From Escherichia phage vB_EcoM_VR20: a stretch of DNA of 64,000 nucleotides. Position 1 is the first letter of the stretch; every line of letters begins with the position of its first letter. The notes under the pieces are model-generated. The model ran no database searches. It was not told where the DNA came from and was given only the letters and a program-made list of their open reading frames with translations. The position numbers were made by a program, and so were the translations under genes. This document shows, piece by piece, positions 843 through 12,484 of the stretch. The stretch is from the sequence record NC_028894.1; one strand, given 5' to 3'.

Positions 843-1371
843 TTTGAACCCCTTTAGCATATTCACGACATTCAGCAATAAAACGATTAAGCTTTCGTTT
901 TTGTTTATGACTTTCTAATGTGTACTCAGACGTCAAATCAAGAAGCTCAGCTTTATCATAATTTTTAATATCAGTATAAGCTGGCCGGCGGTCAACCATT
1001 CCAAATACATCACCATTTTCTAGCGCCACATAACATACTAAATGGTAATCATCATCTGCCATATTAAGAAGTATACAATCATCGCTCTCGTTTAAAGCAT
1101 ATACTGAATAACGTAGTCCAGCGAATTCCACTCGTTGAATACCCAGATTTACATCAATAATTTCCAAGGCATCTGCGAAAGAAAGGTCTTCAGCTAAAGC
1201 AAAAATAAAAGGCAATTTTGTAGTATCGCCACGGCTAGTTGTTCTTCTTAAGAAATCATTGGAATAACCCAAGTCACCGCGGATTCTATAAAGAACTGTA
1301 TTAGTTTCAGTAGCAAGGCCACTACCGCCAAACCAGTCTACATTTGATATAAGGTCAGTATATAAGCTCAT
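817..1371 (-). CDS. hypothetical early protein
   Basis: ATG at 1371 preceded by GGAGAGGAG; the track start at 1389 is TTG. GC hairpin immediately upstream. Confidence 0.55.
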   Translation of the reverse strand: MSLYTDLISNVDWFGGSGLATETNTVLYRIRGDLGYSNDFLRRTTSRGDTTKLPFIFALAEDLSFADALEIIDVNLGIQRVEFAGLRYSVYALNESDDCILLNMADDDYHLVCYVALENGDVFGMVDRRPAYTDIKNYDKAELLDLTSEYTLESHKQKRKLNRFIAECREYAKGVQNANVISAK

Positions 1372-1414
1372 AATTTTCTCCTCTCCCAATTAGGGGGCTT
1401 TGCCCCCCTTTATC

Positions 1415-2008
1415 TTACTTAAGTGAATTGATGTATTCTTCAATGTCAGCGGATGTGGTATCCACACCAACCTGTGGACCTTTGAAGGTTTCAACACGCA
1501 TCAGAGTGTCTTCAATATCAATCTTAGTCAATGCAGCGATTTCAACAACATCATCTGCGGTTGCAATACCTAGGGCAGACACCTTACGGGTTTCGCGGAT
1601 GTATTCCAGTTTAACAGCTAGTTCCTGACGAGAGTCATCCAGCTCTTTAACTTTCAATTTAATTTCATTACGCATTTCAACATAATCATCTGCCTTCTTA
1701 CGAAGTTGTTTAGCAGTGCGACGATACAGGAGACCCAGTTTAGCATGGACCTGGACATCAGCACCATCAGCAATCAGTTTACGAATTTCACGCTCTTTTG
1801 AAGCGGCGAGCTGGTCTTTTTCATTCGCTAGCTCGCGGATGCGTTTTTCTTCATTAACAGACTTAACGTGGGCAGTCTGGAGCTCAGTAATCTTATCAAT
1901 CAGGGTAGAAGCAGCTTTAGTATACTGGTCTTCAATAGACAGGTTTTGCGCCATTGCAGTACCCAGTTTGGAGCGGATAAATTCAACAAGTTTCTTTAAA
2001 GTATTCAT
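1415..2008 (-). CDS. hypothetical protein, largely predicted coiled coil
   Basis: ATG at 2008 with AAGGAA RBS; 197 aa rich in heptad-like charged repeats ([20 protein letters not shown]...). Confidence 0.6.
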
Positions 2009-2083
2009 GGTATTTCCTTCAGATGGTTAAAGTTTTATTATCCAGGGAACATACTATCATGTTCCCAGAGGTATGTAAACATT

Positions 2084-2482
2084 TTATTTCATTTTTGCGA
2101 GGCAGATTTCATTGGCTTCCCATTGAGCTTGCTTAATAATAGCTTTGGATACAGGAACCTTTTGACCATAAGTTTTTGACGTTGAGAGAACAATATATTT
2201 GTTTGCCTCATTATGCCAGCCCCATGATTTTTCACCATGAGTACCTTTAACTACAGCTGACACCTCAACAGAACAACCATCAGCGCCAATCTTGGTATCA
2301 ACAATCCATTCATTTCGCTTAATTGCTTCTTCCAATGCTGCTGCTTCCGCCATCCAGTGTGTTTCAGGGTCTATTTGTTCAATCTCACGAGTTAACGCAG
2401 CTCCCAGGTCTTTTGCATATTTTTGTTGCTCTGGGGTTAATGAGTCATATAACTTTTTCATTTCTTTATCTTCAATATTCAT
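2084..2482 (-). CDS. hypothetical early protein
   Basis: ATG at 2482 with GAGG RBS; the track start at 2512 is TTG inside a GC hairpin. Confidence 0.55.
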   Translation of the reverse strand: MNIEDKEMKKLYDSLTPEQQKYAKDLGAALTREIEQIDPETHWMAEAAALEEAIKRNEWIVDTKIGADGCSVEVSAVVKGTHGEKSWGWHNEANKYIVLSTSKTYGQKVPVSKAIIKQAQWEANEICLAKMK

Positions 2483-2516
2483 AATATTTTCCTCAAGGGG
2501 CTTTCGCCCCAATCAT

Positions 2517-2822
2517 TTAAATTTTGTTTTCCTGCACACCATAATAAAGTTCATCAGACACAATATCCAGGATGCGGCGAACATATTCATCATGGTATTG
2601 GCAGTCAAAATCAAATGCAACAGTAGTTTCCGCTTCACGAGTGAATTTAACTTGCACATTCAGGTGATTAACAACGTTAGTTAATTTATCAGTAAAGAAC
2701 TCTTTTGCTACCGCCTGTTGGACTTGCACTTTGAACTTGGTGTTACGAATCATATTTTCAGCAGATGTGAAATTACCAGTTTTATCAAAGTCAACAAGCG
2801 CCAGGTTGATGATGAATTTCAT
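2517..2822 (-). CDS. hypothetical early protein
   Basis: ATG at 2822 directly preceded by the conserved leader ...ACACTGGAGAATAAA-ATG and early promoter copy A. Confidence 0.55.
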   Translation of the reverse strand: MKFIINLALVDFDKTGNFTSAENMIRNTKFKVQVQQAVAKEFFTDKLTNVVNHLNVQVKFTREAETTVAFDFDCQYHDEYVRRILDIVSDELYYGVQENKI

Positions 2823-2863
2823 TTTATTCTCCAGTGTTTTATTTGGTAACTCAGTATGGAATC

Positions 2864-2893
2864 ATTATGCCTTAAAGCAGGGGGCTTGTATAC
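2864..2893 (-). promoter_or_regulatory. T4-type early promoter (cassette copy A): -35 GTATAC, -10 CATAAT
   Basis: Minus-strand reading GTATAC-18 nt-CATAAT, followed by the conserved leader ACTGAGTTACCAAATAAAACACTGGAGAATAAA and ATG at 2822. Confidence 0.55.
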
Positions 2894-2904
2894 CCCCTTT
2901 TTAA

Positions 2905-3348
2905 TTAAATTTCAAATTCTTTGCGGAAGTTGGAAGCATAAGACTGAACTGATGCTTTGTTGAATCCAAACTCACGCACAATCATATCAATAACAGCTCT
3001 GCGAGCAGCACCGTTAGACATATTAACAGTTCTGAACATATCATAGCATAAATCTTTGTTGCTCATACCGGAGCGTTTAGGTGCCTTACGTTCAGCTTTT
3101 GGTTCAGCTTTAGGAGTAGGTTTAACTTCTGGTTTAACCTGTCCATCATTCAGACCTTTAAAAATTTTACCTGCCAGAGTTGCCAGTTTAGCAGCTTCGC
3201 CACGAGTGATACCAAATACTGCCGGGTTAAATGAAATACCTTCAGCTGTCAGACGTTTGAAGAACATACGTGCTGCGGATTGTGCTTCAGCTTCAGAAGA
3301 GTTGTTTAATGCCAGTTTAACATACTTAACCAGTTTTGAAGTTTTCAT
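2905..3348 (-). CDS. hypothetical early protein with C-terminal module shared with 3801..4226
   Basis: ATG at 3348; C-terminal ...NGAARRAVIDMIVREFGFNKASVQSYASNFRK matches ...NAARRALIDVLVTTHDIKKTVVQSYASNFRK of the neighbouring gene. Confidence 0.6.
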   Translation of the reverse strand: MKTSKLVKYVKLALNNSSEAEAQSAARMFFKRLTAEGISFNPAVFGITRGEAAKLATLAGKIFKGLNDGQVKPEVKPTPKAEPKAERKAPKRSGMSNKDLCYDMFRTVNMSNGAARRAVIDMIVREFGFNKASVQSYASNFRKEFEI

Positions 3349-3390
3349 TTTATTATCCCGTTTGTTTATTTGGTAACTCAGTATGGAATC

Positions 3391-3420
3391 ATTATGCCTT
3401 AGTTAAATTCCAAAGTACAT
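3391..3420 (-). promoter_or_regulatory. T4-type early promoter (cassette copy B)
   Basis: Minus-strand ATGTAC-18 nt-CATAAT; core GGTAACTCAGTATGGAATCATTATGCC (plus 3372..3398) is identical to copy A. Confidence 0.5.
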
Positions 3421-3421
3421 A

Positions 3422-3718
3422 TTAATTTTCAGAAGTTGGGAAATAAACTTCAAAGTCATACATGTTTACTACTGCAGTCGCGATTGCTTGGTACTGCATA
3501 CCCAAGAAAGTTTTCTTGTTCTTACGCCACAAGTTAACCATTTCTGTTTTGATGCATGCCAGGGAGTAGTTGGATGCAGGATACTGTTTGATGATTGCAA
3601 CAACTTCTTCAGAAGCAGTTTCGCACAATTCATTCAGTTGAGCTTCAATTTTAGCAGAAATGATTGCTTTGTTTTCTTCTTGAGCTTGGGTAGCGTGCCA
3701 TGCAGGTGCGTTGAACAT
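3422..3718 (-). CDS. hypothetical early protein
   Basis: ATG at 3718 preceded by AAACACTGGAGAATAAA leader and promoter copy C. Confidence 0.5.
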   Translation of the reverse strand: MFNAPAWHATQAQEENKAIISAKIEAQLNELCETASEEVVAIIKQYPASNYSLACIKTEMVNLWRKNKKTFLGMQYQAIATAVVNMYDFEVYFPTSEN

Positions 3719-3759
3719 TTTATTCTCCAGTGTTTTATTTGTTAACTCAGTATGGGATA

Positions 3760-3789
3760 ATTATACACTATCCCACCTGGAAGTAAAAC
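3760..3789 (-). promoter_or_regulatory. T4-type early promoter (cassette copy C) with -10 inside a hairpin loop
   Basis: Minus-strand GTTTTAC ... GTGTATAAT; the -10 lies in the loop of the 7-bp stem TGGGATA/TATCCCA (plus 3753..3775). Confidence 0.55.
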
Positions 3790-3800
3790 ACTTTTCTCAA

Positions 3801-4226
3801 TTATTTTTGAGCTTTGCGGAAGTTGGATGCATATGACTGAACAACAGTCTTTTTGATATCATGGGTGGTAACCAGAACATCAATCAGAGCGCGACGAGCT
3901 GCATTATCATTCATATCAATTTCTGCAAATGCCTGGAAGCAAATGTCACGAGCATTACCAGATTTGGACTGGATTTTTTCTTCTTTAACTTCTTCAATTG
4001 GGAATTCAATCATTTCAGCTTGGATTAATTCAATGATAGATTCTTTTGACTGTTTGGTGTTTACCTTCAGTTCAGAATTAAGGGACTTGGCGATGGCAAC
4101 AATCTGGGTTGAAGTCAGATGAATAAGTGCATCTTCACGAATGCAGATTTCACATACTTCGTCAGCAACCATTTTGTTGGTGATGCGGGTAACAGAAAAT
4201 GCAGAGGTCAGGGTCAGAAAGTTCAT
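3801..4226 (-). CDS. hypothetical early protein with C-terminal module shared with 2905..3348
   Basis: ATG at 4226 preceded by GGAGAAATAAA leader; the track start at 4307 is GTG lying inside the promoter cassette. Shared C-terminal motif VQSYASNFRK. Confidence 0.6.
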   Translation of the reverse strand: MNFLTLTSAFSVTRITNKMVADEVCEICIREDALIHLTSTQIVAIAKSLNSELKVNTKQSKESIIELIQAEMIEFPIEEVKEEKIQSKSGNARDICFQAFAEIDMNDNAARRALIDVLVTTHDIKKTVVQSYASNFRKAQK

Positions 4227-4277
4227 TTTATTTCTCCAAAGTTTTGTTTGATTCAGTGTGTAACTCAGTATGGAATC

Positions 4278-4307
4278 ATTATGCGCCGGGTCAATTCGGA
4301 TGTACAC
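4278..4307 (-). promoter_or_regulatory. T4-type early promoter (cassette copy D)
   Basis: Minus-strand AAAAGTAGTGTACA-17 nt-CATAAT, followed by the conserved ACTGAGTTAC core. Confidence 0.5.
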
Positions 4308-4343
4308 TACTTTTTGAAGAAAATTTCAAATTTATTCGGGGTA

Positions 4344-4366
4344 TAAAAAAGCCCGCAATGCGGGCT
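4344..4366 (-). terminator. intrinsic terminator (minus strand)
   Basis: Hairpin AGCCCGC-AAT-GCGGGCT followed on the minus strand by a U-run (plus-strand AAAAAA 4345..4350); sits just downstream of gene 4368..4922. Confidence 0.6.
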
Positions 4367-4367
4367 G

Positions 4368-4922
4368 TTAGTTCTTATAAAAGCGGAACGGATTTATATG
4401 AAAGGCGAGCATAGCCTTAGGGATGGGTCGGGACAGAAGGCTCTTGAGCTTCCAGCCACAATAAACACGCAGATAAAAGGTGATTCCACCGACCTTAAGA
4501 TAAGGAACAGAAGCAAAAACACCCCAGGCGTTGTCCGTCCACATCCAGAGCCATCCATGATGAGCTTTATCCGGGGAACCAGATTCGACATCAGGATTAC
4601 CTTTATAATGGAATTCTGAATTGCAATCACGACCGAGCTTGTGGTAAGCAAAATTGTATGCTTTGTTTCGCCAGAGCCAGGCTACTCGTTGGAAGTAAAC
4701 ACCTAACGGCCATTTTCTGATTTTTTCCCAGCGTTTAACATGACCACGGTCACCATCAATTGGATTATCGTATGTCATCATCCAGTCAAATCCGAACGGA
4801 AGCTTACCAGTCTTTTTGTTATGGAACGGCACTACAAATGGTGCAAGGATAACAGCCAGAATCATTGAAATGAAATCCAGTGGCACTAACAGAATCCAGC
4901 TTAGATATTTTAAAAGTTTCAT
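4368..4922 (-). CDS. membrane-anchored protein, Trp/aromatic-rich, unknown function
   Basis: ATG at 4922; N-terminal hydrophobic helix (LSWILLVPLDFISMILAVILAPFVV); terminator hairpins on both flanks. Confidence 0.55.
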   Translation of the reverse strand: MKLLKYLSWILLVPLDFISMILAVILAPFVVPFHNKKTGKLPFGFDWMMTYDNPIDGDRGHVKRWEKIRKWPLGVYFQRVAWLWRNKAYNFAYHKLGRDCNSEFHYKGNPDVESGSPDKAHHGWLWMWTDNAWGVFASVPYLKVGGITFYLRVYCGWKLKSLLSRPIPKAMLAFHINPFRFYKN

Positions 4923-4954
4923 AAATTTCCTTAGTTATGGGTACGTTATATTTA

Positions 4955-4984
4955 TAAAAAAGCCCCAACCTTTCGGAAGGGGCT
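4955..4984 (-). terminator. intrinsic terminator (minus strand)
   Basis: Hairpin AGCCCC...GGGGCT with inner CC-UUUC-GG, followed on the minus strand by a U-run (plus AAAAAA 4955..4960). Confidence 0.55.
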
Positions 4985-5032
4985 AAGCCTTGCGGCAACC
5001 TTGTCGGGGTTCCACCTGCTAGGCAAGTGTTC

Positions 5033-5416
5033 TTATCCGCGTGCGAATGCCATTGCAGCGCGTTCGTTGGCACGGTCAGTGATGTTCAAGAATTTATCAC
5101 GAGCGATTTCGATTGGAGCACCAACCCAGTCAGCAGCACCATTACCTGGGGACTGTTTAGGACGAACCATATAAGTTGAAACTTTGGAACCAGCTAGTTT
5201 AGCACCAGGTGCAGCGGCATTCTTAACGTCTTTAGCTTTGATACCAAAACCAGTTACGATGCCCCAAGAAACACCATTAACTGGTTTCTTGAACATAACA
5301 CGGTCGCCAATTGAAACACCCGCTTTTTCTGGAGCTACTAAAGAAAATTTACCGGCTTCAGTCAGCACGGATTCGGTGATGGTATTGCGATTTAAAAATT
5401 CTGCATATGTAAGCAT
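5033..5416 (-). CDS. hypothetical protein
   Basis: ATG at 5416, 127 aa; weak RBS; terminator downstream. Confidence 0.45.
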   Translation of the reverse strand: MLTYAEFLNRNTITESVLTEAGKFSLVAPEKAGVSIGDRVMFKKPVNGVSWGIVTGFGIKAKDVKNAAAPGAKLAGSKVSTYMVRPKQSPGNGAADWVGAPIEIARDKFLNITDRANERAAMAFARG

Positions 5417-5653
5417 TTTGTTTTTCCATTATTAGGGTTGTTGTTAATATTTATATTCCATAGTACCGGATGCACCATCCGCTCGGATTTCTCATACTAC
5501 CGGGCGCACCGCCCGCTCTGGAAAAACTCCATAAAAAGGTGCGCCGTTTCTGCTGTGATATAAGGGGACATCAACAAATCGTAAAGATTTATTAATGTCA
5601 GTCCTTAAACAGGGAACATCAGTCCGACGACTTACCGGTAGCGACCCGGTTTC

Positions 5654-5893
5654 TCATTCAATTGTAATAGCTAATTTGACTTTAACAACCTTATAATTGG
5701 AATCAAGGTCATTGAATTCCATAAAATTTGTTGCTAATCTGCGAGTCGGGAAACTTAGATATTTATTATGAGCCGGAGGAGCGGTTAATGCAAACCATGG
5801 GACTTGTTTATCATTTGCATCGAACTCGTCAAAACTATAAACCAGCTCGTTGTTGGTTATATCCATAACCGCATAGGATTCGTTAATAACCAT
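5654..5893 (-). CDS. hypothetical protein
   Basis: ATG at 5893 with GAGGA RBS, immediately downstream (minus strand) of the tRNA pair. Confidence 0.45.
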   Translation of the reverse strand: MVINESYAVMDITNNELVYSFDEFDANDKQVPWFALTAPPAHNKYLSFPTRRLATNFMEFNDLDSNYKVVKVKLAITIE

Positions 5894-5910: not shown

Positions 5911-5987
5911 TGGTCGGGGTGGTGGGATTCTAACCCACAACCTACGGTTTAGAAGACCGTTGCTCTATACAATTGAGCTACACCCCG
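5911..5987 (-). tRNA. tRNA-Arg (anticodon TCT), CCA encoded
   Basis: Minus-strand sequence folds as a cloverleaf: acceptor CGGGGTG/CACCCCG, D-arm GCTC/GAGC, anticodon stem ACGGT/ACCGT with loop CTTCTAA, T-arm GTGGG-TTAGAAT-CCCAC, 3' ACCA. Confidence 0.8.
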
Positions 5988-5989
5988 AG

Positions 5990-6063
5990 TGGCCCCATCC
6001 GGACTTGAACCGGAAACCTGCCAGTTATGAGCCGGATGCTCTAACCAATTGAGCTACAGGGCC
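5990..6063 (-). tRNA. tRNA with anticodon CAT (Met or Ile2-type)
   Basis: Minus strand: acceptor GGCCCTG/TGGGGCC (two GU pairs), D-arm GCTC/GAGC, anticodon loop CTCATAA, T-arm TCCGG-TTCAAGT-CCGGA, discriminator A. Confidence 0.75.
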
Positions 6064-7506: not shown

Positions 7507-7534
7507 TTTATTCTCCTCATTAGTTGATGGGATA

Positions 7535-7565
7535 ATTATACACTATCCCATATCTAAAAGTACAC
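7535..7565 (-). promoter_or_regulatory. early promoter with -10 (GTGTATAAT) in hairpin loop; -35 GTGTAC
   Basis: Stem TGGGATA/TATCCCA (7528..7550) encloses the -10; GTGTAC lies about 17 nt upstream on the minus strand. Confidence 0.55.
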
Positions 7566-7799
7566 TTATTTTTTACGGAAAATTGATTTATACTGTTTAG
7601 CCCATTTCTCGATAACTTCTGCTGGACCCTGGATAACAAAATAGTCCCCAAACTCTTCACCGCCGAGCTGACCGTAATTATCTAAGGCGTCGCGGAGAGT
7701 TCCATAAGGCATTTCGCCCATTTTATCTTTCTTGCCGGTGTAAATGAATTGCACTTTAACATCAGCAGTTTCATTAATAAATTCTTGATAAGTTTTCAT
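7566..7799 (-). CDS. internal-protein-like small protein with N-terminal capsid targeting sequence (MKTYQEFINE)
   Basis: N-terminus MKTYQEFINE-T matches the T4 IP capsid targeting sequence with a prohead protease (gp21) type cleavage motif; own promoter/RBS module; adjacent to 57B as ipI is in T4. Confidence 0.7.
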   Translation of the reverse strand: MKTYQEFINETADVKVQFIYTGKKDKMGEMPYGTLRDALDNYGQLGGEEFGDYFVIQGPAEVIEKWAKQYKSIFRKK

Positions 7800-7824
7800 G
7801 TTGTCTCCAGTAGTTGATGGGATA

Positions 7825-7854
7825 ATTATACTGCAGTTATCCCATCACGTACAC
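7825..7854 (-). promoter_or_regulatory. early promoter with -10 in hairpin loop
   Basis: Stem GATGGGATA/TATCCCATC (7816..7846) with loop carrying TATAAT on the minus strand; GTGTAC -35 at 7849..7854. Confidence 0.55.
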
Positions 7855-8132
7855 TAAATTTTTGTATATTGTCCAGCTTTAACTTTTTTCAGTTCACGAG
7901 GGCTTACCGCGTAAGTGAATGGAGCATTCCAGGAAGAACTGACTTTGTAACCTTTAGTCAACATCATTGCTGAAACTTTCTTGTTATCAGGACCGTTTTC
8001 GCCTTTAACAAGAAACAACTCAAATGCGCCACCATCAACCGGTTTGGCCTTAACCATCAGATGTCCTTTCAGGTCTTCCAGCATATCCGGGTGACTAATT
8101 GATTCGTTAATAAATTCTTGATAAGTTTTCAT
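7854..8132 (-). CDS. internal-protein-like small protein with CTS (MKTYQEFINE)
   Basis: N-terminus MKTYQEFINE-S; unrelated body; own promoter module upstream. Confidence 0.7.
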   Translation of the reverse strand: MKTYQEFINESISHPDMLEDLKGHLMVKAKPVDGGAFELFLVKGENGPDNKKVSAMMLTKGYKVSSSWNAPFTYAVSPRELKKVKAGQYTKI

Positions 8133-8158
8133 TAGTAGCTCCAGTAGTTGATGGGATA

Positions 8159-8188
8159 ATTATACTGCATTTATCCCATCGTGTACAT
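8159..8188 (-). promoter_or_regulatory. early promoter with -10 in hairpin loop
   Basis: Perfect 10-bp stem GATGGGATAA/TTATCCCATC (8150..8180) with TATAAT in the loop; palindromic TGTACA -35 at 8183..8188. Confidence 0.55.
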
Positions 8189-8487
8189 TACATTTTTGAA
8201 CCGCGAATCACGCCATAAGCTGCGAAGTCGTCAGTGATGTTCTTAGGGGTGTTTTTACCAGTTTCAATATATGCGATGCTGGATTTCTGACCAAATGAGG
8301 TAATTTTATTATAGTTAGAGTCAAGGAAAGTATAACCATTTTTACGCAGCTGGTCAAAGTCTTCAGCGTCGCCTTTACCTTTGAAGTCAACCCATTTGTA
8401 TGTGTTTTTCTTCTGAAGGCCCAGAGGCCAGGTTTTTGCTTCTGCCAGGTAATTATTTTCTACCAAAAATTCGTGGAGCGTTTGCAT
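8188..8487 (-). CDS. internal-protein-like small protein with CTS variant (MQTLHEFLVE)
   Basis: CTS-like N-terminus; only 8 nt from the upstream gene, so probably co-transcribed. Confidence 0.6.
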   Translation of the reverse strand: MQTLHEFLVENNYLAEAKTWPLGLQKKNTYKWVDFKGKGDAEDFDQLRKNGYTFLDSNYNKITSFGQKSSIAYIETGKNTPKNITDDFAAYGVIRGSKM

Positions 8488-8495
8488 TTGAAATC

Positions 8496-8768
8496 CTATT
8501 TTAGATAAATTGCATATTTTTTATAACCAGCTGTCTCATGGCGGAGACCCTTGTCATTGGCAAAACGCTCAATGTTGTTGATTTGGTTCTGGTCAAGTTC
8601 AGAGATGTCAAACGCGAAAAAGTTGCGTTTGTTACCAATTGTTATATGGTCAGTTAAGTCAATGCTATACAAGTGATTGATATTGTCAATCATAGCTTTG
8701 ACTGCTTTACTAATTTTTACTTCTTCATTCAGTTGGGACTCGTTGAAAAGTTCATTAAAAGTTTTCAT
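8496..8768 (-). CDS. internal-protein-like small protein with CTS variant (MKTFNELFNE)
   Basis: CTS-like N-terminus; tightly packed behind 8777..9109. Confidence 0.6.
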   Translation of the reverse strand: MKTFNELFNESQLNEEVKISKAVKAMIDNINHLYSIDLTDHITIGNKRNFFAFDISELDQNQINNIERFANDKGLRHETAGYKKYAIYLK

Positions 8769-8776
8769 AAGAAACC

Positions 8777-9109
8777 TTATTTATACAGTTTAGCTAGTTC
8801 TTTACGTCCGCGAGCAGACATAATGAATTGTTCATCACCAATTTTGAAATAAGCCATACCGCCGTCAACAGCGATGCCAATTTCTTTAGTACCTTCTTTG
8901 CCTTTCCACTTACCACCAGATTTCAGGACAGCTTCAACTGCAGCTTTGGAATATTTGGACGTTTGAAAACGTTCATTACCAATCTGAAAGAAAACACCAT
9001 CTGCATTTTTGGATAAACCAAATTTCAGAGAGCCTTCACTATCATCAATTGATTTGGTCTCATTGATGGCGGATTCGGCTAAAAACTCGTTGTAAGTTTT
9101 GATGTTCAT
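8777..9109 (-). CDS. internal-protein-like small protein with CTS variant (MNIKTYNEFLAE)
   Basis: CTS-like N-terminus with LAE cleavage motif; GGAG RBS; stem-loop promoter upstream; directly downstream of 57B. Confidence 0.65.
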   Translation of the reverse strand: MNIKTYNEFLAESAINETKSIDDSEGSLKFGLSKNADGVFFQIGNERFQTSKYSKAAVEAVLKSGGKWKGKEGTKEIGIAVDGGMAYFKIGDEQFIMSARGRKELAKLYK

Positions 9110-11213: not shown

Positions 11214-12047
11214 TTATGAATTTCTCCATACTTTCTGAGAAGAGAATCTTTTGCCTTTCGACATAAATTGTTGCAACGGAAGCATAACAACATTTGCCCA
11301 GTCGCTGGGCTTGATTTCAGTAATAGTACCTTTTATATTGCCAGGTATATATGCTTTAATCATCTGGTCAGCCCCTTTAAATCCCTTCACCTTTGACCAA
11401 TCAATTTTCAGATGAGTCTTGTTCGTAATCGTAGGAGTATTAGCATATTGCTTAAGAAGTTCCTCAAGGAACTCTTGACGCGCCTTCGGTGGAATATAGT
11501 GCAAGTTCAAACCATACATCAAATTGTGCTTACCTAGCCCAAGATAAATGATTAACGGATATTTGTCCCAGTACGGAAGAGTATCCTTATGCTTTGCATC
11601 ATAGATATAAGCATAAATCTTACCTGGTTGAGGTTTAGCCGTTACGTGACCGCGAACTGATTTCTTAATTGTCTCGGCGAACCATCTGGCAGATTTGGTG
11701 TTGCTTGCTGCACCTTCGTTAGCAATCTTATCTCTTATGCTCTTCCTAAAGCTATTCACCATTATCAGCTGGCGTTCAGCCTTCGTAAGTTTACCAGCAG
11801 GTTTCTTTTTGAGCTTGGATACTTTATAAGCAGTCTGAATTCTCGAATGGTATCTTGACATGCTTTTGGTAAAGGTCGAATAGTTGATTCCTTTCTCTTC
11901 AGCAAACTTCTTCGAGGTCATTCCCTTTTCTTTTGCTGTATAAAATTCAACCCCTATCTCAACCCATTGTTGTTCGGATTTACTGGGTTTCGGACCTGGT
12001 TTATCTGCAGATTCATTGATAAATGTAAAAATACTCATCCTTTCCAT
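11214..12047 (-). CDS. 2: gp2, DNA end protector protein
   Basis: 277 aa, basic; synteny between genes 3 and 4. Confidence 0.7.
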
Positions 12048-12484
12048 CCTAATTTTTTCAGTGAGTTTTCAGTGATTATCCTGAACGTTATACCCATCTT
12101 ATCCGCGGTAGCTTGCGCAGCTTTCCATTTGTCAGAGTTAACGCTCCAGGTGTACATCTCATTAATAAATCTCTTTTTACTCGCAGTGGTATTATTAACC
12201 GGTTTGGTTGGGGGTCTTGTTTCTTTTAATGGTTTAACTTCGAAAAAGAACTGTTGCCCCGTATCGAACTTAACCCAGAAATCCATATAATATCTGCGTT
12301 TTTTCCCTTCAGCGTTGCAGAAGTATGGAATAATCACAGTCTCAGAGCCCCATTGAACAACGTTCGGATGGTTGTCGAGCCATCTCATCAACCACGCCTC
12401 CCAGCTTGACCGGTATTGTATTTTCTTCCAGTCGCCCTTATATTTTTCTATATTGGTGGGCTTAAATTTCCCGGAGTATGCCAT
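12035..12484 (-). CDS. 4: gp4, head completion protein
   Basis: MAYSGKF...YRS.WE...[14 protein letters not shown]...FRI.TE, recognisable as T4 gp4; AGGAGG RBS. Confidence 0.9.

Follow-up and report, generated by a model that had tools for sequence, protein, structure and literature searches.

The locus between 4344 and 4984 of Escherichia phage vB_EcoM_VR20 (NC_028894.1) holds one minus-strand gene between two hairpins, and its predicted product joins a membrane segment to an aromatic-rich domain. What is this protein, when is it made, and at which step of the infection could it act? A 64,000-nt stretch of the genome (the window) was analysed computationally, and the following features were mapped around the gene:

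4922..4368, minus: DUF7338 / PHROG 2143 coding sequence, 184 aa, ATG start
4932..4926, minus: Shine-Dalgarno AAGGAAA, 3 nt 5' of the ATG at 4922, assigned from the sequence itself
4370..4368, minus: stop codon of the DUF7338 gene
4344..4366, minus: downstream intrinsic-terminator-like hairpin and U-run (stem 4366..4350), beginning 1 nt past the stop codon
4955..4984, minus: upstream intrinsic-terminator-like hairpin and U-run (stem 4984..4961, GAAA loop)
4956..4949, minus: putative T4-type late-promoter -10 motif TATAAATA, ending 26 nt 5' of the ATG
4953..4965, minus: 13-nt direct repeat GGGCTTTTTTATA, upstream copy, left boundary of the 611-bp cassette
4342..4354, minus: 13-nt direct repeat GGGCTTTTTTATA, downstream copy
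4234..4306, minus: early-type promoter and leader repeat "copy D" (TGTACA-17-CATAAT or TTGACC-16-CATACT)

The gene product and its family

The coding status of the gene is certain from its two profile matches and its tblastn homologues, and its strand is minus. The DUF7338 profile of Pfam (PF24027) scores 210.9 bits against the product, for a cut-off of 27 (E 1.5e-62), and the match spans model positions 1-179 of 180 and residues 1-183 of 184. PHROG 2143 matches with an E-value of 2.6e-79. By the Pfam gathering threshold and its family-invariant residues, the translated product is a DUF7338 member. A foreign base composition was considered and rejected, as the GC content of the gene (0.432) is unremarkable next to that of the adjacent genes (0.398 +/- 0.025).

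The preliminary description had proposed an N-terminal membrane anchor followed by an aromatic-rich domain, and both are borne out at the level of prediction. Residues 7-33 form a predicted transmembrane (TM) helix, with a mean Kyte-Doolittle hydropathy of up to 2.43, and residues 2-33 are one helix in the AlphaFold2 model. C-terminal to this helix lies a basic alpha/beta domain of ~150 aa, rich in Trp, Arg and Lys (pI 9.8). Tryptophan makes up 5.98% of the product, compared with a mean of 1.42 (sd 1.22) over the 59 ORFs of the window, and F+W+Y reaches 18.5%, the top value among these ORFs. The window contains another Trp-rich ORF (12035-12484), which was taken as unrelated because its translation has neither an N-terminal hydrophobic segment nor a DUF7338 motif, and because of its presumed resemblance to a T4 head-completion protein.

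Homologues were detected by tblastn in 568 phage records, including T4-like, Felix-O1-like, KP15-like and jumbo therapeutic-candidate phages, and the family comprises 913 clusters at 50% identity. At least 262 relatives share the length and single-domain layout of the window's protein; domain fusions were looked for and dropped, all relatives listed being single-domain. The family motifs T-x-D-N...G-D, W-L-W-R-N and G-W-K are all present here. Judged by these traits, the window's protein is an ordinary member of DUF7338 / PHROG 2143, and no feature sets it apart. The survey places the gene in a widespread, uncharacterised family; similarity to known exclusion proteins was not found. A literature search returned no paper naming DUF7338. 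Two leads from individual records were dropped. A 288-aa member (P0085) carries a Cys-rich C-terminal extension with "CDKHDNCY", recalling phospholipase-A2 active sites, but Pfam and PDB sequence searches of it were empty and no such ORF occurs near other members. In PQ341120, the label "amidase-6 domain" was not recovered with Pfam and has other implausible labels around it.

Alignments of 29, 105 and 176 members show that T50, D52, D/E58, W82, R85, N86 and G156-W157-K158 are almost invariant, as is P28 inside the membrane helix. The strongest conservation falls on polar residues of the soluble domain, and tryptophan averages 6.5% across the family. Polar residues conserved to this degree would be unusual for holin-type proteins and are suggestive of an enzyme or a specific binder. 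The AlphaFold model (pLDDT 95.5, pTM 0.84) consists of a helix-loop and a five-strand antiparallel sheet. No solved structural relative of it was found, and profile searches against PDB sequences, NCBIfam and PADLOC returned nothing meaningful. DUF7338 is a large and wholly uncharacterised family with a confidently predicted fold that lacks a solved relative.

The predicted topology is type II (N-in/C-out). The presence of one TM helix is clear, and its orientation is a prediction from the charge bias of the family only. Over 130 members, the net charge is +1.09 in the N-flank and -0.20 in the C-flank; the N-flank is the more positive one in 92 of them and the less positive in 18. Members with extended N-termini have +3 there, or an extra TM segment consistent with C-out. 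The window's protein itself, with K2 and K5 on one side and K36, K37 and K40 on the other, gives no clear positive-inside signal when K and R alone are counted.

A mobile cassette and its expression signals

With its 611 bp and one gene, the locus forms a cassette within the variable e-tRNA-segB region of this T4-like phage, and its elements follow each other in the order upstream terminator hairpin, late-promoter motif, ribosome-binding site, DUF7338 ORF and own terminator hairpin. Both flanks have the form of a predicted rho-independent terminator, with a G+C-rich hairpin and a U-run directly after it on the coding strand. Of the 7 pairs in the downstream stem, 6 are G-C, and U6 comes next (-12.6 kcal/mol, z = -3.1 on folding). 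The upstream stem is made of AGCCCC/GGGGCT and an inner CC/GG round the GAAA loop, again followed by U6 (-16.4 kcal/mol, z = -1.9); a simple terminator scan had missed it because of its internal 2x2 mismatch. This hairpin is predicted to terminate the transcript of gene 5416..5033. Terminator-like sites are abundant in this part of the genome, with 16 in the first 10 kb of the window for 6.8 expected. The idea of an insulated single-gene unit, flanked by the two hairpins, is confirmed in its layout and strengthened by an exact presence/absence polymorphism.

In phage P896, the flanks are 98.9% identical and positions 4359-4952 of the window are exactly absent. The difference amounts to a 611-bp indel, and the two alignments share 16 nt, which lie inside the direct repeat. 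This repeat is formed by the two terminators and contains the indel junction; P896 keeps one hybrid GGGCTTTTTTATA copy and everything between the two copies is missing. Recombination between the near-identical 3' halves of both terminators adds or removes the cassette as a whole. A homologue of at least 80% identity is found in about 62 phage records, compared with 718 records sharing the flanking DNA, and viable phages that are otherwise near-identical, with the same tail genes, lack the gene. The genes adjoining DUF7338 vary among close relatives. In L018 and L020, a unit of GAAA hairpin and TATAAATA stands on both sides of the gene, and in L019 and L022 another gene is inserted between this unit and DUF7338. 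Near-isogenic phages that differ naturally in having or lacking the 611-bp cassette thus exist.

The preliminary description had given the gene an early promoter of its own, copy D. This assignment was ruled out, since copy D, the fourth of four promoter/leader repeat copies (2820-2892, 3347-3419, 3716-3788 and 4234-4306), is located past the terminator of the DUF7338 gene, on its downstream side, and is directed into the following gene, 4226..3801 (minus). No sigma-70-type (early) site was found on the minus strand from 4923 to about 5660. The upstream hairpin and the DUF7338 ATG are just 38 nt apart, and a MotA-type middle promoter was also rejected, a TGCTT box at a sensible spacing being absent from these 38 nt and from the hairpin region. 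Start-codon sequestration in read-through transcripts was another rejected candidate, with only a weak 10-bp A-U stem and an overall z of -1.3.

The sole promoter-like element 5' of the gene is of the late type, namely the putative motif TATAAATA, which we take to be the T4 late-promoter consensus and which overlaps the end of the upstream terminator's T-run. The match to the motif is exact, and the predicted late promoter has a short leader to the gene. It occurs 22 times in the window for 4.7 expected (4.7-fold enriched), and its distance to the ATG falls in the range of 24-31 nt that precedes the large structural ORFs of the window. It is conserved in the nearest relatives only, where L018, L020 and L021 have TATAAATA and L023-L026 have CATAAATA; at RB43/KP15-type loci, TATAAATA is missing and a hairpin stands 16 nt 5' of the ATG. 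Where an insertion separates the two, in L019 and L022, the late motif remains with the slot and not with the gene.

In prophages, the DUF7338 reading frame starts within the end of the late gene before it or directly next to it. The YerA41 homologue g185, 51.5% identical to the window's protein, was placed in the "middle" expression class (Table S2, PMC7354516) and LC-MS/MS found it in a preparation of purified YerA41 virions (PMC7354516). Read from these loci, the expression signals are late or middle rather than early.

Genomic context and possible roles

A lysis gene lies within two genes of DUF7338 in about 10 of 33 independent contexts, and tail-fibre genes adjoin it, instead or as well, in about 10 of the 33. 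Two prophages have DUF7338 between endolysin and spanins. In the Burkholderia multivorans prophage L099, holin-like genes and Phage_lysozyme are followed by DUF7338 (start overlapping), an i-spanin-like protein with a TM segment and a coiled coil, and a lipobox o-spanin. In L106, the order is Phage_holin_3_3, VanY/M15_4 endolysin, a 76-aa two-TM protein, DUF7338, an Rz-like gene with an embedded lipobox Rz1-like ORF, and an integrase. A GH108 endolysin begins 3 nt past DUF7338 in L105, and an M15_3 endolysin lies two genes downstream in L102. Downstream of DUF7338 are also found two multi-TM holin-like proteins, GH19 and a spanin-like protein (L103), a holin-like protein and Phage_lysozyme (L083), and Phage_holin_3_7 (L065). 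In two jumbo-phage groups, a GH19/PHROG "endolysin" is directly upstream. In the window, and in T4-like, RB43/KP15-like and Felix-O1-like phages, the gene stands among tRNA genes and small accessory ORFs, and not beside lysis genes. The context in relatives favours the tail-fibre/lysis junction as the gene's place, and two prophages have it within the lysis cassette itself.

Our best guess, put forward tentatively, is that the DUF7338 protein is an inner-membrane factor of the late phase, associated with lysis and dispensable. Its gene would be transcribed late, from the late promoter and possibly also by read-through of the upstream hairpin, and the product would be a type II inner-membrane protein. 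Its site of action would be the periplasmic side of the inner membrane, and its part in lysis or particle release would be an accessory, dispensable one. There, it would most likely modulate the holin-endolysin-spanin pathway like an antiholin or lysis regulator; alternatively, it would bind or process an anionic envelope ligand via the conserved Asp/Arg/Asn/Lys/Trp site. DUF7338 would thus be an optional late gene whose job may concern lysis, and an envelope-directed role from the periplasmic side is plausible. We infer that it is not the principal holin, endolysin or spanin of the phage. It is possible, if doubtful, that DUF7338 is an unrecognised lysis-cassette component with a new fold, whose periplasmic site binds or cleaves an envelope molecule or the holin and so tunes lysis, and that it spreads in T-even phages on a stem-loop and late-promoter variant of the promoter-early/stem-loop (PeSL) cassettes of T4-type phages (Arbiol et al. 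2010, PMC2839356; Comeau et al. 2014, PMC4122927). If the placement in lysis cassettes reflects function, a new player would be added to a holin-endolysin-spanin pathway that is thought to be well understood, and the natural near-isogenic phages would make an easy test system for it; if it is a passenger gene instead, the finding is routine.

The tail-fibre/lysis junction is a classical insertion site for unrelated "moron" genes, and the lysis adjacency may therefore reflect a permissive site and not a shared function. A moron serving host takeover or anti-defence, for example by guarding the membrane against a membrane-acting abortive-infection effector, and travelling in hyperplastic regions and module junctions, is an unlikely explanation. 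It would agree with the presence/absence polymorphism, with the very diverse contexts, which include a replication region (L101) and a solitary chromosomal copy (L107), both unrelated to lysis, and with the location in a neighbourhood of T-even variable-region genes known for accessory or anti-defence roles: the related phage EAWsc9 has an annotated Acb1 homologue a few kb from DUF7338, and vs.4/vs.6 are its neighbours in RB43. However, similarity to a known anti-defence or defence family is absent (Pfam, PADLOC, PDB sequences), and the homologue bas63_0153 is not mentioned among the counter-defence genes in the text on the Bas63 genome-wide knock-out screen (PhageMaP), where statements on single genes are not given. 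Such a role would also leave unexplained the repeated, translationally coupled placement inside lysis cassettes.

The tail-fibre neighbours allow another account, in which the protein is an accessory of the fibre module, either a late membrane factor for fibre or baseplate maturation or one that keeps progeny off cell debris, and in which the lysis adjacency arises only since lysis cassettes follow tail-fibre genes. The Mu-like prophages L005 and L012, where DUF7338 comes at the end, directly after a tail-fibre-assembly gene and with no lysis genes nearby, speak for it, together with L011, where a tail-fibre gene stands on each side, and L008 and L075, where the gene follows Gly_rich_2 fibre proteins. 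The YerA41 virion detection is weak evidence, since the preparation also held polymerases, helicases and other non-structural proteins. We consider this account quite improbable: virion assembly takes place in the cytoplasm and the domain is predicted to face the periplasm, phages that are near-identical and share their tail genes can do without the gene, and in L099, L105 and the jumbo phages it lies beside lysis genes without an adjoining fibre gene.

The preliminary description had favoured injected-DNA exclusion or envelope modification. In the manner of T4 Imm/Sp, T5 Llp or Cor, a membrane-anchored periplasmic domain could block DNA injection or adsorption of a secondary phage, or mask or modify a conserved receptor component of the envelope, for example the LPS core. 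An accessory, horizontally shuffled gene for a protein with a membrane anchor and a probably periplasmic domain would fit, and its high conservation across phages with different receptors would suit a conserved envelope target. Receptor-related exclusion and conversion genes are often located beside tail-fibre genes, and the tail-fibre contexts of DUF7338 agree with this. Direct support is nevertheless absent, with no matches to PADLOC models or known exclusion proteins (Pfam, NCBIfam, PADLOC, PDB sequences), and a late-type motif stands in place of an early promoter, the YerA41 homologue being of the middle class. The prophage copies are translationally coupled to late-operon genes and are not separately expressed conversion genes; this coupling makes expression in lysogens unlikely. 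A change in LPS biosynthesis minutes before lysis would presumably hardly alter the existing outer membrane. Overall, an exclusion or envelope-modifying function seems improbable.

Comparison with known lysis, exclusion and cassette systems

The lysis-associated reading can be set against the T4 holin T and antiholin RI, which have a single N-terminal membrane segment and a periplasmic globular domain and act in late lysis control. DUF7338 shares with them the predicted bitopic N-in/C-out topology, the periplasmic domain, the late-type promoter motif and, in relatives, a position beside endolysin or holin genes. It is very unlikely to be a true holin of the T architectural class (one TMD and a large periplasmic domain), although several GenBank records label it "holin", endolysin genes adjoin it in several phages, and its single TMD with a C-terminal domain of roughly 150 aa recalls the layout of T. 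No relationship to Phage_holin_T, the periplasmic domain of this class III holin, or any holin family was found in sequence or fold, and conservation does not peak in the membrane segment but in the polar residues of the soluble domain. T-even phages in general carry t, dedicated holin genes co-occur with DUF7338 (Phage_holin_3_3 in L106, Phage_holin_3_7 in L065, holin-like pairs in L103 and L099), and near-identical viable phages do without it.

The i-spanins of the lambda Rz type also resemble DUF7338 in their type II inner-membrane topology, predicted here, and their ~150-aa periplasmic domain, and the gene directly follows the endolysin in L099 and the jumbo phages. In contrast, the DUF7338 periplasmic domain is beta-rich and globular in the model, and not a coiled coil. 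No lipobox ORF for an o-spanin-like lipoprotein partner is embedded in, overlaps, adjoins or follows the gene in the window, and in L099 and L106 the gene is immediately followed by a separate Rz/Rz1-like pair. With the exclusion proteins T4 Imm/Sp, T5 Llp and Cor, the likeness is one of general layout only, that of a small accessory protein which a virulent phage places in the envelope and whose gene is sometimes found beside receptor-binding genes; homology, a lipobox and an early promoter are lacking in DUF7338.

As a mobile element, the locus is closest in form to the PeSL cassettes. Like these, it consists of a single non-essential ORF bracketed by stem-loop terminators in a hyperplastic region, and it is an indel among close relatives with its junction inside repeated AT-rich/stem-loop sequence; transcriptional insulation would allow insertion without disturbing the neighbours. 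A textbook case lies just downstream, where the hairpin at 4350-4366 and the early promoter at 4267-4306 serve the next gene, 4226..3801. The DUF7338 cassette differs in that its upstream stem-loop is joined to the late-type motif TATAAATA and not to a strong sigma-70-like early promoter, and the linker repeated on both sides of the gene in L018 and L020 is likewise a stem-loop with a late motif. Late promoters are not mentioned in either PeSL paper (PMC2839356, PMC4122927). The cassette would indicate that late-promoter composites, too, can serve the shuffling of modules via terminators in T-even phages.

Gene, terminators and promoter of the DUF7338 locus

The DUF7338 gene forms a single-gene cassette that is insulated, is mobile by recombination and bears a late-type promoter motif. 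The gene carries AAGGAAA 3 nt upstream of its ATG, and the hairpin and U-run terminators that the preliminary description had placed on both sides were recovered in minus-strand orientation.

4922..4368, minus: DUF7338 ORF, 184 aa
4344..4366, minus: downstream hairpin AGCCCGC-AUU-GCGGGCU + U6, 1 nt past the DUF7338 stop codon (-12.6 kcal/mol, z -3.1)
4955..4984, minus: upstream hairpin AGCCCC..CC-GAAA-GG..GGGGCU + U6, 38 nt ahead of the start codon (-16.4 kcal/mol, z -1.9)
2820-2892, 3347-3419, 3716-3788 and 4234-4306, minus: four copies of a ~75-nt early-promoter/leader repeat, one small gene after each

The preliminary description, of a single-gene unit with its own early promoter, is largely correct: the gene, hairpins, membrane segment and aromatic residues stand, and the promoter does not. 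The promoter named, copy D (4234-4306), is the fourth repeat copy and contains the early-type hexamers TGTACA-17-CATAAT (4306..4278, minus) and TTGACC-16-CATACT (4294..4267, minus). It cannot serve DUF7338, because on the minus strand it lies downstream of the DUF7338 terminator, directly before the next gene, 4226..3801. A scan of the minus strand from the DUF7338 start codon to ~5660 reported no sigma-70-type site.

The spacer between the upstream hairpin and the gene, GGGGCUUUUUUAUAAAUAUAACGUACCCAUAACUAAGGAAAUUUAUG, includes TATAAATA (4956..4949, minus), which is the late-promoter consensus of T4. The window contains 22 copies of this motif, versus 4.7 +/- 2.4 in shuffles, and the 26 nt from its end to the DUF7338 ATG fall within the 24-31 nt cluster ahead of the window's large structural ORFs. 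It is found at the same place in three of five close relatives although their surroundings have diverged. Karamvirus-type loci have CATAAATA instead, RB43/KP15-type loci have only a hairpin 16 nt ahead of the ATG, and in two loci with an extra inserted gene (L019/L022) TATAAATA remains with the slot, not with DUF7338. Conservation of the motif is limited. Late rather than early action of DUF7338 is favoured.

Expression of homologues was also considered. In YerA41 the homologue (YerA41_123 in GenBank, gene 185 of Table S2; 201 aa, 51.5% identical) belongs to the 'middle' temporal class and is detected by LC-MS/MS of purified particles, in a preparation that also included many non-structural enzymes. 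In Felix-O1-type phages (Bas63, MZ501086, 18961-19518; L004; L034-L056), DUF7338 is located within a tRNA array on the same strand, tRNA-Leu ending 19 nt before it and tRNA-Gln starting 9 nt after it; judged from this layout, it must be co-transcribed with the tRNAs. The Bas63 homologue, bas63_0153 (59% identical), is not discussed in the text of the Bas63 genome-wide knock-out preprint. A tRNA is also found just upstream of DUF7338 in L080/L085 and RB43. In most prophage cases the DUF7338 start codon overlaps or abuts the late gene ahead, which argues for co-expression with late genes as opposed to a separately expressed lysogenic-conversion gene.

Protein family, fold and predicted topology

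The product, a bitopic membrane protein, belongs to a large family that is uncharacterised; it matches Pfam DUF7338 over its full length (210.9 bits, E 1.5e-62) and also falls in PHROG 2143. Against 1.84 billion representatives, a profile search gave 913 clusters at E <= 1e-3; among the 150 clusters listed, nearly all are single-domain proteins of ~160-220 aa, and PF24027 is the only domain listed in a second search. Searching PDB, NCBIfam and PADLOC with the protein sequence gave no match. The N-terminal membrane segment and aromatic richness described previously are both evident: residues 7-33 are strongly hydrophobic (Kyte-Doolittle mean up to 2.43), Trp makes up 5.98% (window mean 1.42 +/- 1.22), and F+W+Y reaches 18.5%, the top of 59 ORFs.

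In the AlphaFold2 model, built with 29 sequences (pLDDT 95.5, pTM 0.84), residues 2-33 form a long helix, followed by short helices within 59-95 and an antiparallel sheet within 105-183. Among 176 aligned members of diverse origin, P28, L41-P42, T50, D52, G57, D/E58, W82, R85, N86, Y89, F91, G97, G156-W157-K158 and P178 are near-invariant, P28 falling inside the membrane helix. Conservation is no lower in the membrane segment than in the remaining protein, so the segment probably does more than anchor it. Flank charge in 130 members (N-flank +1.09, C-flank -0.20; 92 vs 18), together with the longer positive N-tails or additional TM of some members, favours a predicted N-in/C-out orientation with a periplasmic domain.

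The sole fusion seen is P0085, a metagenomic protein of 288 aa, in which DUF7338 is followed by a Cys-rich segment of ~70 aa and a C-terminal hydrophobic helix. The Cys-rich segment includes CDKHDNCY, which recalls the active sites of secreted phospholipase A2; Pfam and PDB sequence searches found nothing.

Genomic contexts and possible function

Gene neighbourhoods were compared in 33 independent contexts (clusters <75% identity drawn from IMG/VR, GTDB genomes and assemblies, with nine look-ups added). In ~10 of them an endolysin, holin or spanin gene lies at most two genes from DUF7338, most clearly in two betaproteobacterial prophages (L099, L106).

L099, Burkholderia multivorans: two small membrane proteins, Phage_lysozyme, DUF7338, 104-aa TM + coiled-coil protein, lipobox (LAGC) Pro-rich protein
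L106: Phage_holin_3_3, VanY/M15_4 endolysin, 76-aa two-TM protein, DUF7338, 171-aa Rz-like protein, integrase
L105: GH108 endolysin 3 nt downstream of DUF7338
L103: two holin-like proteins, GH19, spanin-like
L102: M15_3
L083: holin-like, Phage_lysozyme
L065: Phage_holin_3_7
L013/L070: endolysin (by PHROG), then Rz-like protein with lipobox ORF
Two jumbo-phage groups: GH19/'endolysin' gene immediately ahead of DUF7338

In L099 the DUF7338 start overlaps the stop of the Phage_lysozyme gene, and the last two proteins form an Rz/Rz1-like pair; in L106 a lipobox (LSAC) Rz1-like ORF is embedded in the 171-aa Rz-like gene. DUF7338 may be a dispensable, lysis-related factor of the late phase that would work from the periplasmic side of the inner membrane; we favour this reading tentatively. 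The main holin it is not, since the gene is optional and occurs together with dedicated holins, and that it is a true holin at all is very unlikely. Nor is it a spanin: the domain is a globular, beta-rich one, a lipoprotein partner is lacking, and spanins are encoded separately. Exclusion or envelope modification, the role that the preliminary description had read from the anchor and aromatic domain, is unlikely; the favoured late action and the late-gene arrangement in prophages count against it.

Tail-fibre or fibre-assembly genes are directly upstream in ~10 of the 33 contexts, and in Mu-like prophages of Chitinivorax and Aquitalea DUF7338 is the final late gene, behind a fibre-assembly gene. 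Half of these are also lysis contexts, and a tail-fibre-related role is considered quite unlikely. Immediately ahead of a fibre-chaperone-like gene and DUF7338, the metagenomic phage locus L103 has a diversity-generating retroelement (1017-4059; Mtd-like target protein, bAvd, reverse transcriptase).

Unrelated contexts also occur: one is a helicase/dCTP deaminase region, another a solitary chromosomal copy. The latter (L107, a Rhodocyclaceae MAG, 4501-5070) has an acetyltransferase gene on one side and ubiD/ubiA-type genes on the other; no phage gene lies within 4.5 kb of it, and it may be domesticated or a remnant. Such scatter would suit an unrelated anti-defence or takeover moron, as the lysis neighbourhoods would not; we regard this as unlikely. 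Unrelated genes are known to land at the module junction, and in the window itself DUF7338 does not adjoin lysis genes; the link to lysis, and with it the functional call, is therefore weak.

Neighbouring modules and the mobile cassette

Megablast with window 3400-5700 matched 718 phage records, nearly all T-even-type coliphages, the best being DK-13, MN01 and vB_YenM_P8 (coverage 100%, identity ~95%). Genes run on the minus strand over the first ~21 kb of the window, and EAWsc9, an annotated relative, has its e - tRNA - segB - internal-protein stretch at the equivalent position.

143-559 and 483-878, minus: two small overlapping ORFs, products very hydrophobic, multi-TM
5033-5416, minus: 127-aa ORF, with its own TATAAATA at 5455..5448, 31 nt ahead of the ATG
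5417-5653, minus: non-coding stretch of 237 nt with many short inverted repeats, between ORF 5893..5654 and gene 5416..5033
5911-6063: tRNA-Arg and tRNA-Met
7511-8198, minus: second promoter-repeat family (D3-D5), ahead of a run of small paralogous genes

The same variable region thus encodes further membrane proteins (ORFs 143-559 and 483-878). Genes 2905-3348 and 3801-4226, each behind a promoter/leader repeat, are paralogues: PHROGs 18416/9997 cross-hit, and the C-terminal domain that both genes have in common is labelled 'rho-N'/'H15' in EAWsc9. The small paralogues within 7566-9109 (minus; 7566-7799, 7854-8132, 8496-8768 and others) begin MKTYQEFINE..., and some genes of this stretch are labelled 'internal head protein' in EAWsc9. 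The 127-aa ORF has no PHROG match. It is missing from CJ20 and from L018 and L021, which also lack both downstream paralogues, and is therefore another optional module. Within the non-coding stretch, relatives conserve 5538-5654 to 91-93%, also where their flanking genes differ; Rfam at gathering threshold gave no match for 5417-5653, which could be a small stable RNA like those ending the T4 tRNA cluster.

A homologue at least 80% identical is present in only ~62 phage records, versus the 718 with the flanking DNA in common. Phage P896 (Gaprivervirus) is 98.9% identical to window 3400-4358 and 94.8% to 4953-5700 and lacks the DUF7338 gene. Its two flank alignments share 16 nt; the overlap, GGGCTTTTTTATA, occurs twice in the window (minus, 4965..4953 and 4354..4342), 611 bp apart, each copy being the 3' stem half and T-run of the respective terminator. 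In L018/L020 (~4940-5000, ~5556-5600), an identical GAAA stem-loop unit, GGCCCTTCCGAAAGGTTGGGCC + T-run + TATAAATA, stands on either side of DUF7338.

[quoted passage not shown] The 4350-4366 hairpin and the repeat copy that follows it, ahead of gene 4226..3801, are a PeSL-like unit, and the DUF7338 cassette behaves as described for PeSL cassettes. It differs in that the composite ahead of DUF7338 has a late-type motif, late promoters not being discussed in either paper; the L018/L020 unit is a repeated stem-loop/late-promoter composite, a variant in neither. The DUF7338 cassette is thus a known cassette type with a late-promoter twist, and the protein it encodes is an unexceptional representative of a catalogued domain-of-unknown-function family.
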